DNA of 64,000 nucleotides from contig JAZUKI010000007.1 in NCBI GenBank assembly GCA_045643205.1, positions 32,001-96,000 on the forward strand, given 5' to 3'. The notes below the pieces were generated by a model, which ran no database searches, was not told the origin of the DNA, and worked only from the letters and a program-made list of their open reading frames with translations. Each line of letters opens with the position of its first letter. Within the stretch, counting starts at the first letter, position 1. Positions 50,715 to 52,772 of this stretch are shown here, one piece after another. A program made the position numbers and the translations under genes. This stretch comes from Clostridia bacterium (lineage in GTDB: Bacteria > Bacillota > Clostridia > TANB77 > CAG-508).

Positions 50715-52772
50715 TTACATAAATTCTTTTAATTTATTGCTTCTTGATGGATGTCTTAATTTTCTTAAAGCTTTTGCTTCAATTTGTCTAATTCTTTCAC
50801 GAGTAACATTGAATTGTTTTCCAACTTCTTCAAGTGTTCTTGCTTTTCCATCTTCTAATCCAAATCTTAATTTTAATACTTTAGCTTCTCTTGGAGTTAA
50901 TGTTTTCATAACTTCTTCAAGTTCTTCTTTAAGCATTGTATATGAAGCTGCATCTTGTGGTGATGGTGAATCTTCATCTTTTATAAAATCTCCTAAGTGA
51001 GAATCATTCTCTTCACCAATTGGTGTTTCAAGTGATACTGGATCTTGTGAAATCTTTTGAATTTCAAGAACTTTTTCAACTGGAATTTCCATTTCTGCTG
51101 CAATTTCTTCTGGAGTTGGTTCTCTACCATTTTGTTGTAATAAGTGTCTTGAAGTTCTTAATAATTTATTGATTGTTTCTACCATATGAACTGGAATTCT
51201 GATTGTTCTGGCTTGGTCTGCAATAGCTCTTGTGATAGCTTGTTTAATCCACCATGTAGCATATGTTGAAAATTTGTATCCTTTCGTATAATCAAATTTT
51301 TCAACTGCTTTGATTAATCCCATGTTACCCTCTTGAATTAAATCTAAGAATAACATTCCTCTTCCTACATATCTTTTAGCAATACTTACAACTAATCTTA
51401 AGTTAGATTCAATTAACTTAGACTTAGCTTTATTATCACCAGCTTCAATCTTTTTAGCTAATTCTAATTCTTGCTCGTATGTTAATAGAGGTATTTTTCC
51501 GATTTCTCTTAGATACATTCTAACAGGATCATCAAGTTTAATTCCATCCATGCTTTCAATATCTAAATCATTTACATCGATTTCTTCAATTTCTTCTAAG
51601 TCTTCTGAATCTGGTTCTGTTTCATCAAAGTCATCATTAATAATTGCAATTCCTGCTTTTTCTAAAACAGTAAAACATTTTTCCAAATCATCTGGTGATG
51701 AATTTCCAATGAAACTAGCAATTTCAGAATAAGTAATTTTCTTTTTCTTCTTTGCTTTCATTACTAACTTTCTTAATTTTTCATCATCTTTTAATTCTGG
51801 AATATCTTTTATATCTAAACCTTCTGCTTGTTTTTGTGCTTCTTTTTCCGCTAATGCCTTTGCTTTTGCTTCCTCTTTTTCTTTTAAAGCTGCTGCTTTT
51901 GCTTCTTCTTTCTCTTTTCTAATTCTTTCTCTCTCTTCTGCCTTTGCCTTCATTGCCTCTGCTCTTTCTTTTTCCTTTTGTTTTCTTGCTGCTTCTCTTT
52001 CTTTTTCTCTTTGTTTTCTTGCAAGTTCTTTTTCTTTTTCAATTCTTTTTCTTTCAGCTGCTTTTGCCTTTGCTATTTTTAATTTTTCAGCTGCTAATTT
52101 CTTAGCTGCTGCTTTCTTAGCTAATTCCTTCTTTTTCTTTTCAGCTGCTTTTTTGGCTGCTAATTTCTTTGCTTCCATTAATTTTTTCTTAGCAGCTAAT
52201 TTCTTTGCTGCTGCTAATTTAGCTAGTTCTTTCTTTTGCTTTTCAGCTGCCTTTTTTGCTGCTAATTTTTGAGCAGGTGTTAAAGGTTTCTTAACTGCTG
52301 TTTTTCCTGTTGTCTTAACAGGTACTTTTTTTGCTGACTTTGCTGGAACCTTTGCTGTATTTTTTTTAGCCACTGATTTTGCAACTGGTTTCTTTGCTGT
52401 ATTTTTAACAGCATTATTTTTAGAAACTTTTTTAGTTGTTGCATTTTTAGCTGGAACTTTTTTAGCAACAGCTTTCTTTGTTGCTACTTTTGCTGGAACT
52501 TTTGATGTAGATTTTTTTGCAACTGGTTTTTTAGCTACATTTTTAGCAGGTACTTTTTTTGCAACCACTTTTTTAGCTGGAGTCTTTGTTACAGTCTTTT
52601 TAGCAGATGCTTTTGTTGCAACTACTTTTTTAGCTGGTTTCTTTTCTGTTGTTTTCTTTGCAACTGATTTTTTAACTACAACTTTTTTAGCTGGAGCTTT
52701 TGTTGTAGTTTTTACTTTTGCATTTTTTGATGTTACTTTTTTAACAACTTTCTTTTCAACTTTCTTTGCCAC
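50715..52772 (-). CDS. rpoD: Primary sigma factor RpoD/SigA with a long Lys/Ala-rich N-terminal extension
   Basis: [52 protein letters not shown]...[24 protein letters not shown] start right after dnaG. Confidence 0.95.
51820..52772 (-). repeat. Low-complexity K/A/V/P/T repeats followed by an E/K/R/A charged helix, within rpoD
   Basis: Repeated [33 protein letters not shown]. Confidence 0.9.

Follow-up and report, generated by a model that had tools for sequence, protein, structure and literature searches.

A housekeeping sigma factor with a lysine-rich N-terminal appendage and a long predicted helix in a low-GC clade of Clostridia

We analysed a 64,000-nucleotide stretch of contig JAZUKI010000007.1 from a Clostridia bacterium (hereafter the window; GC content 28.4%), and concentrated on its rpoD/sigA gene, whose product carries 327 residues ahead of a complete primary sigma factor. 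The coding sequence (50715..52772, minus strand, stop codon included) specifies 685 amino acids (aa) in one open frame from a GTG. A GGGGG ribosome-binding site (52781..52785, minus strand) lies 8 nucleotides (nt) 5' of the GTG and overlaps the TAG stop codon of dnaG, the minus-strand start context being TAG-GGGGG-AATAAAAA-GTG. An earlier description made from the letters alone (the sequence-only reading) had given the same frame, start codon, ribosome-binding site and position just after dnaG, and all of these were confirmed; the strand, which it did not state, is minus. A comparable motif (GGAG, GAGG, GGGG or AGGA) is found at the same position in 34 of the 46 open reading frames (ORFs) of at least 150 aa in the window, an example of such a purine motif at the same distance being GATAGGAGAATAAAAA-ATG ahead of the ORF at 46506..47126.

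The DNA primase gene dnaG (52785..54569, minus strand; NCBIfam identification) is directly upstream of rpoD in the same orientation, with 12 nt between its end and the rpoD start. Directly 3' of the rpoD stop comes a terminator-like hairpin (50675..50709, minus strand), which has a stem of 16 pairs and a T run, and another (54769-54815) lies upstream of dnaG, between it and a gene for a CarD-family RNA-polymerase-binding protein (CarD_TRCF_RID and CarD_C domains; 54832..55404, minus strand). Because these hairpins flank the pair, dnaG-rpoD looks like a two-gene unit, and the two genes are probably co-transcribed. The arrangement of dnaG directly upstream of rpoD recurs in all ten related loci that we checked, and carD precedes dnaG in two of them (L004 and L005). 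CarD thus adjoins dnaG-rpoD in the window; in mycobacteria, the effects of CarD are reported to depend on sigma's N-terminal extension (PMC12312024). Downstream of rpoD lie rpsF, ssb and rpsR. No second sigma gene was found by Pfam or NCBIfam among the 49 other window ORFs scanned, which represent 64 kb of the genome only, and an Rfam scan of the window returned three tRNAs and no rRNA.

Profile matches identify residues 328-685 as a complete Firmicute-type RpoD/SigA of 358 aa, that is, a group 1 (primary) sigma factor. All five sigma regions match Pfam above cut-off and in order, as had been claimed for the part of the protein that follows the extension: region 1.1 (51585..51788; residues 329-396), region 1.2 (51432..51530; residues 415-447), region 2 (51204..51416; residues 453-523), region 3 (50949..51179; residues 532-608) and region 4 (50751..50912; residues 621-674), all on the minus strand. 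The NCBIfam RpoD equivalog NF006666 (PRK09210), a profile of 370 positions, matches residues 328-685 through its positions 11-369 and scores 587.8 bits (cut-off 572). Among solved structures the nearest chains, SigA proteins 368-390 aa in length, can be aligned only from residue 326-334 onward. As both these chains and PRK09210 cover only the C-terminal part, residues 1-327 are an addition to a complete SigA. The protein is thus like canonical Firmicute SigA (Bacillus subtilis and clostridial, about 370 aa) in its full-length core match and in the dnaG-rpoD arrangement, but differs from it by 327 extra N-terminal residues with a net charge of +82. Region 1.1 and the linker behind it (residues 328-414) have a net charge of -13.

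The first part of the extension (residues 1-163; 52284..52772, minus strand) is a polycationic tail rich in K, V, A, T and P, with a net charge of +55, and is predicted to be disordered. Residues 1-165 are composed of K 35%, V 18%, A 17%, T 12% and P 7%, with two glutamates (E 1%) and no aspartate (D 0%), again with a net charge of +55; lysines recur every 4-5 residues, roughly as KK-x-x-x repeats. For comparison, the 45 other ORFs of the window have K 9.7%, A 5.5% and P 3.0%. The tail had been described as histone-H1-like, made of PAKK/KKVPAK/AKKPVAK repeats almost without acidic residues. The basic, H1-like character and the scarcity of acidic residues are borne out; to be corrected is the composition, V and T being as abundant as A and P. 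The second part (residues 164-318; 51819..52283, minus strand) is a K/A/E/R segment with a net charge of +29 over 154 aa, the first half of which (164-240) is K/A-rich with few acidic partners; residues 166-327 contain K 30%, A 27%, E 18% and R 6%, with a net charge of +27. A linker of low prediction confidence (residues 303-327; 51792..51866, minus strand), which includes a conserved 15-residue stretch, leads from the helix into region 1.1.

We considered whether the extension could be an artefact of annotation or assembly, either through an internal start or through a misassembled repeat. Truncated database entries (P0014, P0126, P0163, P0166 and P0178, all among the relatives described below) would be in line with this, as they show that the region is hard for gene callers and assemblies. 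In the window, the open frame exceeds what chance would give: the extension frame contains no stop in 327 codons, compared with 23 and 28 stops in the two other sense frames, and none of 20000 mononucleotide shuffles of the extension stayed open. In-frame ATG, GTG or TTG codons occur only at codons 1, 69, 134, 199, 274 and 338, and at none of the internal candidates is there a usable ribosome-binding site. An internal start near 51.8 kb, which the sequence-only reading had named as a way to overturn its view, is therefore not available: codons 275-337 contain no in-frame start codon at all, so that a SigA of canonical length cannot be made by internal initiation. A start like that of P0014, which begins LTPAQ, is also unavailable in the window, where codon 164 is Leu and not a start codon. 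As to assembly, the repeats in the extension DNA are imperfect (62-90% matches), which makes repeat collapse less likely, and the same architecture is present in ten other clusters from independent sources; the other way in which the claim could have fallen, absence from relatives, thus does not apply. With the open frame and the native codon usage added to the start-site evidence, we find an artefact barely credible. Taken as sequence evidence, these results indicate that the gene is translated from the GTG at 52772 and that the appendage is real and conserved within its clade.

Codon choice in the extension matches that of the 45 other window ORFs. The GC content at third codon positions (GC3) is 0.119 in the extension and 0.145 in the other ORFs, while that at first and second positions (GC1/GC2) is raised, to 0.48/0.38 from 0.42/0.31. 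As GC1/GC2 are raised while GC3 is native, the abundance of Ala, Pro and Val goes counter to the genome's AT bias, and the composition of the extension is thus held against the mutational AT bias of the 28.4%-GC window.

To the structure of the extension we applied AlphaFold2, using a 29-sequence alignment (mean predicted local distance difference test, pLDDT, 59.1; predicted template-modelling score 0.22). Residues 1-162 were returned without secondary structure (pLDDT approximately 30-37), and were followed by one unbroken helix of 137 residues from 166 to 302 (window 51867-52277; pLDDT 80-93), then by the low-confidence linker and the helices of region 1.1. This prediction agrees with the charged helix of about 150 residues that had been proposed to follow the tail. 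At 0.15 nm per residue the predicted helix would be approximately 20 nm long. A coiled coil is not favoured for residues 164-318, with L, I, M or V at only 19 of 157 residues of the segment and a weak 3.5/7-residue periodicity. With few hydrophobic residues and a weak heptad signal, the predicted helix resembles a charged single helix more than a coiled coil. Residues 164-318 most likely form one long, solvent-exposed helix of about 137 residues. A two-copy complex prediction for residues 160-325, run without controls, scored 0.00 against a mark of 0.42 and bears neither way on dimerisation. Searching the PDB by sequence with residues 164-320 gave no match at E-values up to 1, and a search of the ESM Atlas with residues 1-327 gave neither a usable match nor a model.

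We then asked how widely the module, meaning tail plus helix ahead of a sigma core, is distributed. A whole-protein search covered proteins of 376-1199 aa in a set of 5.8 billion clusters, with 8000 candidates scored and the best 120 listed. The same architecture was found in ten further clusters, formed at 90% identity and drawn from ENA, JGI and Logan, namely nine clusters of 656-680 aa (P0003-P0011) and the incomplete entry P0014. When residues 1-327 alone were used, 11 of 7994 scored candidates had E <=1e-3, and all of them were RpoD clusters, including the window protein itself. When 1.84 billion representatives, without limit of length, were searched by an index-free method, four weak matches (E 1.1e-4 to 5.6e-4) resulted. 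In each case the match was to a K/A/P/V tail borne by some other protein, 204-300 aa long; the partners of these tails were HTH_3 in one case, the RsfS ribosome-silencing domain in another, a possibly membrane-spanning hydrophobic stretch in a third, and no significant domain beyond an HC2-like tail in the last. No free-standing homologue of the module was found among the 376-1199 aa proteins of the 5.8-billion set or among the 1.84 billion representatives. By these searches the module is confined to a narrow clade.

The searches also bear on the proposal that the extension is cleaved off to leave a free histone-like protein and a canonical SigA. Residues 328-685 alone amount to a complete SigA, and a low-confidence linker lies at residues 303-327; against this, neither protein-set search found the module free-standing, and no protease site or partner is evident. 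We regard cleavage as very improbable. An origin by fusion of a separate histone gene was considered as well and rejected, as neither search found a free-standing homologue and dnaG is directly before rpoD in the relatives examined. Growth in place, not gene capture, is indicated by the position of dnaG directly ahead of rpoD in 10/10 related loci.

The pattern of constraint along the protein was examined in an alignment of the window protein (P0002) with eight of the ten related clusters; P0007 and P0009 were not aligned, although their lengths were counted when segment lengths were compared. The tail has 58-62% identity to the window protein, gaps in 77 of 197 columns, a length of 134-163 aa and a net charge of +51 to +62. 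The helix segment, in contrast, has 84-86% identity and no gaps in 155 columns, and is 154 aa long in 11/11 clusters. Further towards the C-terminus, region 1.1 with its linker is 95-97% identical (gaps in 0 of 96 columns) and regions 1.2-4 are 95-99% identical (0 of 271 columns). The first 12 residues are invariant in the seven full-length relatives aligned, and P0009 begins likewise; the sequence given for P0007 starts with L. The DNA of the helix segment consists of tandem repeats, one with 2 copies of a 102-nt unit and one with 3.6 copies of a 33-nt unit. That the helix segment keeps a fixed length despite its repetitive DNA, while the adjoining tail in these genomes is rich in indels, suggests a constraint on helix length.

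Basic, disordered N-terminal extensions on housekeeping sigma factors are already known from Actinobacteria and Bordetella. Lysine repeats are reported to be over-represented in DNA-binding proteins of Streptomyces, including HrdB, to occur also in Bordetella pertussis RpoD, and to stabilise the complex of Streptomyces TopA with DNA (PMC5714199). Like HrdB, mycobacterial SigA and B. pertussis RpoD, which have a basic A/K/P/T-rich disordered extension ahead of an acidic region 1.1 equivalent, the window protein places basic K/A/P-type repeats ahead of the acidic region 1.1 of a primary sigma factor. The Propionibacteriaceae loci that we examined also have A/K/T/P-rich RpoD N-termini. In 10 Actinomycetota loci, the N-terminal stretch, its end being set 150 residues ahead of the region 2 motif, measures 134-418 aa, and the earlier statement that actinobacterial tails are shorter is therefore not general. 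There are also clear differences. The window extension has no detectable homology to the actinobacterial or Bordetella tails, as the extension search finds only its own clade and the four weak matches at the level of composition; V and T are as prominent in it as A and P, unlike in the actinobacterial tails; and the window clade has a predicted helix of invariant length, 154 aa, before region 1.1, where none was seen in the 10 Actinomycetota N-termini. Lysine repeats were moreover suggested to go with GC-rich genomes (PMC5714199), whereas the host of the window protein is low-GC (28%). Our literature searches turned up no Firmicute or clostridial primary sigma factor described as having such an extension, which is what the sequence-only reading had supposed for Clostridia. 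What is new here is the occurrence in a low-GC host, the absence of homology to known tails, and the length-invariant predicted helix of approximately 20 nm.

Three further systems help to judge what such an extension might do. Streptomyces DdbA, which combines an H1-like domain with a DksA-like RNA-polymerase-binding domain, is reported to bind and condense DNA (PMC3643593). It resembles the window protein in that a basic H1-like N-terminal domain is fused to a protein acting on RNA polymerase, but here the partner is DksA-like and not a sigma factor, the basic domain is approximately 93 aa, a spacer helix is absent, and the host is a GC-rich actinobacterium. The KER region of CAF-1 (yeast Cac1, PDB 8DEI) is described as a single helix, 128 Å long, which contacts DNA through its positive charges and serves as a spacer with length-dependent function (PMC10335832). 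The likeness lies in a long K/E/R-rich helix without tertiary contacts that joins functional parts, the window helix being predicted only; the KER is eukaryotic, unrelated in sequence and approximately 86 residues long versus the 137 predicted here, and the window helix is Ala/Lys-rich in its first half. Lastly, removal of the disordered first 205 residues of Mycobacterium tuberculosis SigA is reported to lower the steady-state Vmax approximately 100-fold and to change the effects of CarD and RbpA (PMC12312024).

On the strength of these four precedents (the lysine repeats, DdbA, the CAF-1 KER and M. tuberculosis SigA), we tentatively prefer, at somewhat less than an even chance, a reading in which a genuine primary sigma factor carries a clade-specific 327-aa appendage that tethers it to DNA by way of a spacer helix. 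The tail would bind polyanions non-specifically, most plausibly the AT-rich chromosomal DNA, and the positively charged helix may also bind DNA, as the CAF-1 KER helix does. Sigma or the holoenzyme might thereby be kept on the nucleoid, or added contacts with flanking DNA might stabilise promoter complexes, comparable to the action of the TopA lysine repeats. The length-invariant helix could then be a spacer that separates the polycation from region 1.1, which is acidic and mimics DNA, and it would set the reach of the DNA contact at approximately 60 bp. A bolder version, which we consider quite unlikely, is that the sigma factor has a second role as a nucleoid-associated protein and contains its own molecular ruler, having arisen in an AT-rich genome independently of the actinobacterial repeats: the +55 tail would be held approximately 20 nm off RNA polymerase, and would either clamp or bridge DNA approximately 60 bp from the promoter or nucleate charge-driven polymerase clusters.

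Several observations weigh against a DNA tether with a spacer, beginning with the comparisons themselves. A SigA of M. tuberculosis without its first 132 residues is reported to be unimpaired in in vitro transcription and complementation (PMC10011835). In the CAF-1 study, the single alpha helix of Myosin 7a was reported to lack DNA binding (PMC10335832), and DNA binding is therefore not general for such helices. AlphaFold2 often assigns confident long helices to charged low-complexity sequence. Chlamydial Hc2 (Pfam HC2, PF07382), a polycation of short K/A/P/V repeats and in that respect like the tail, is a free nucleoid protein and not, as here, a module fused to a sigma factor; two relatives pass the Pfam cut-off of 40 bits, P0008 with 78.1 and P0003 with 40.8, but the window protein, which scores 18.9 bits, does not. 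As the family is defined mostly by composition, a match to it says little on descent. The clusters that share the module are very close to one another (core 95-99% identical), so that the absence of indels from the helix may partly reflect short divergence; yet the tail gained indels in the same genomes.

The habits of the wider lineage weigh in the same direction. At least 135 residues precede region 1.2 in 114 of the 119 other clusters listed, compared with approximately 87-128 in canonical forms, a figure that is biased to long forms because the search covered only proteins of at least 376 aa. A complementary search therefore covered proteins of at most 375 aa (best 120 of 7994 listed). Among the matches listed, complete canonical proteins of approximately 374 aa with a named source had 75-77% core identity (for example P0141, P0226 and P0232), and full-coverage matches of at most 375 aa reached at most 81% identity; the labels given to canonical forms by their submitters were Clostridiaceae, Clostridia and Clostridium. 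Four of the short entries with the highest identity were inspected (P0126 at 81%; P0163, P0166 and P0178 at 85%), and each proved to be a truncated gene call whose start falls within an extension or within region 1.1. Among genome contigs, the best 80 of at least 539 relatives gave best matches of 71-78% identity over the core, with neither the window's own species nor the closest clade among them. The other extensions in the lineage are K/E/N/T/Q-rich, and often consist of tandem repeats with strain-variable copy number. Near-identical relatives of the P0037-P0084 type measure 438, 443, 448, 453, 458 and 463 aa, differing by steps of 5 aa (KETNK units), and those of the P0036/P0055 type measure 592, 637, 652 and 682 aa, differing by steps of 15 aa (ADVNNGKNQKGENR-type units). 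These steps suggest repeat-number polymorphism at the sigma N-terminus, and the repeat turnover of the lineage looks like slippage-driven growth of weakly constrained low-complexity sequence. In the most abundant relative, P0084 (438 aa; source name Clostridium sp. CAG:793), AlphaFold2 predicts a helix at 6-46 (pLDDT 70-81 over 11-30, below 50 from 35), then disorder and no long helix.

Two further observations were made on these relatives. An N-terminal motif, VKxxIxLIDxARIAKK, is conserved in many extended relatives (P0018-P0121) and is absent from the clade of the window protein; it is predicted to be helical, with pLDDT 70-81 in P0084. Three RpoD relatives (P0012, P0013 and P0015) are 561-627 aa long and yet have normal N-termini of 102-117 residues, and must therefore hold a large insertion elsewhere; P0012 carries a precomputed PF12840 domain.

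A maximum-likelihood tree from region 1.1 to the C-terminus (39 chosen rows, midpoint root for drawing only) places the K/A/P-plus-helix proteins together with P0016 in a clade (support 100/99) that is nested in a 21-row clade of extended forms (98/93), while 15 rows with canonical N-termini make up a clade of their own (100/99). Because of this nesting, the sequence data make the module a derived and extreme state within a lineage that habitually extends the N-terminus of RpoD. On where the extension occurs, which the sequence-only reading had proposed to map, both parts of the answer matter: this module is present only in a narrow clade, but extension as such is not an isolated oddity, N-terminal lengthening being lineage-wide.

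The serious rival among the four is, as we see it, that the extension is a tolerated, near-neutral low-complexity expansion at a solvent-exposed N-terminus, produced by replication slippage and without specific function. Unrelated repeat types at the same position across the lineage, with their length steps of 5 and 15 aa, are what this explanation would lead one to expect, as is the tandemly repetitive DNA of the extension; the low identity of the tail among such close relatives (58-62%, with many indels) counts for it, M. tuberculosis SigA is reported to work without its first 132 residues (PMC10011835), and a penicillin-binding protein (PBP) encoded in the window also has a K/R-rich N-terminal tail. 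It accounts less well for the enrichment in Ala, Pro and Val, with raised GC1/GC2 opposing the AT bias while GC3 is native, for a net charge that stays at +51 to +62 despite sequence turnover, for the absence of indels from 155 columns of helix next to a tail with 77 of 197 columns gapped, and for the invariance of the first 12 residues. Near-neutral expansion thus seems to us on the unlikely side, though a contender to be taken seriously.

The polycation could also act on something other than DNA. It might bind polyphosphate or RNA, or blocks of opposite charge might drive RNA-polymerase condensates in place of a simple DNA tether. The protein does consist of such blocks, with the +55 tail, the mixed-charge helix and the -13 region 1.1. 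Binding of polyphosphate by the principal sigma factor of Helicobacter pylori is cited as known, and lysine-rich disordered regions of YihI and RNase R are reported to bind polyphosphate (PMC12345225). No polyphosphate kinase gene was found by Pfam or NCBIfam among the 49 other window ORFs, which in 64 kb says little on the genome, and where K/A/P repeats have been described before, on sigma, TopA and HU, they have to do with DNA (PMC5714199). We judge a role of this kind doubtful.

The interest of the extension goes beyond this locus. The disordered N-termini that housekeeping sigma factors carry are increasingly seen to have a strong influence on initiation kinetics, and the clade offers a modular natural example (polycation, rigid-looking helix, acidic region 1.1 and core) in a low-GC Firmicute background, for which compatible core polymerases from model organisms exist. 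A lysine-rich tail in a window of 28% GC contradicts the suggestion that lysine repeats on DNA-handling proteins belong to GC-rich genomes. If the length of the helix is truly constrained, it would give a direct handle on whether sigma appendages act by reach. As gene callers and assemblies often truncate rpoD here, RpoD-based marker analyses in these gut lineages need care.

Some other genes of the window, all on the minus strand, deserve brief mention. The class B PBP (47130-49253) has an N-terminal K/R/Q-rich stretch of approximately 60 aa (K+R 35%) ahead of its matched region; its best NCBIfam match is to a PBP4(5)/PBP2a-type model, below cut-off. Ribosomal protein S18 (49413-49691) has approximately 24 extra N-terminal residues, rich in K, R, N and D, its profile match starting at residue 25. 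The ORF for L13 (36035-36562; 175 aa) starts with a TTG without a ribosome-binding site and matches Pfam from residue 46, so that the true start probably lies downstream of the one listed. Acetate kinase is encoded by two full-length genes in tandem (19305-20504 and 20610-21818). The ORF for alanyl-tRNA synthetase (17495-19276) has only 593 aa, ends directly after the tRNA_SAD domain and is shorter than is usual for bacterial enzymes of this type. In an ORF of 196 aa (12025-12615) a RelB antitoxin domain (9-65) is followed by a NUDIX_4 domain (68-179), and one of 217 aa (2855-3508) matches the Cornifin/SPRR family, that is, a proline-rich low-complexity protein.

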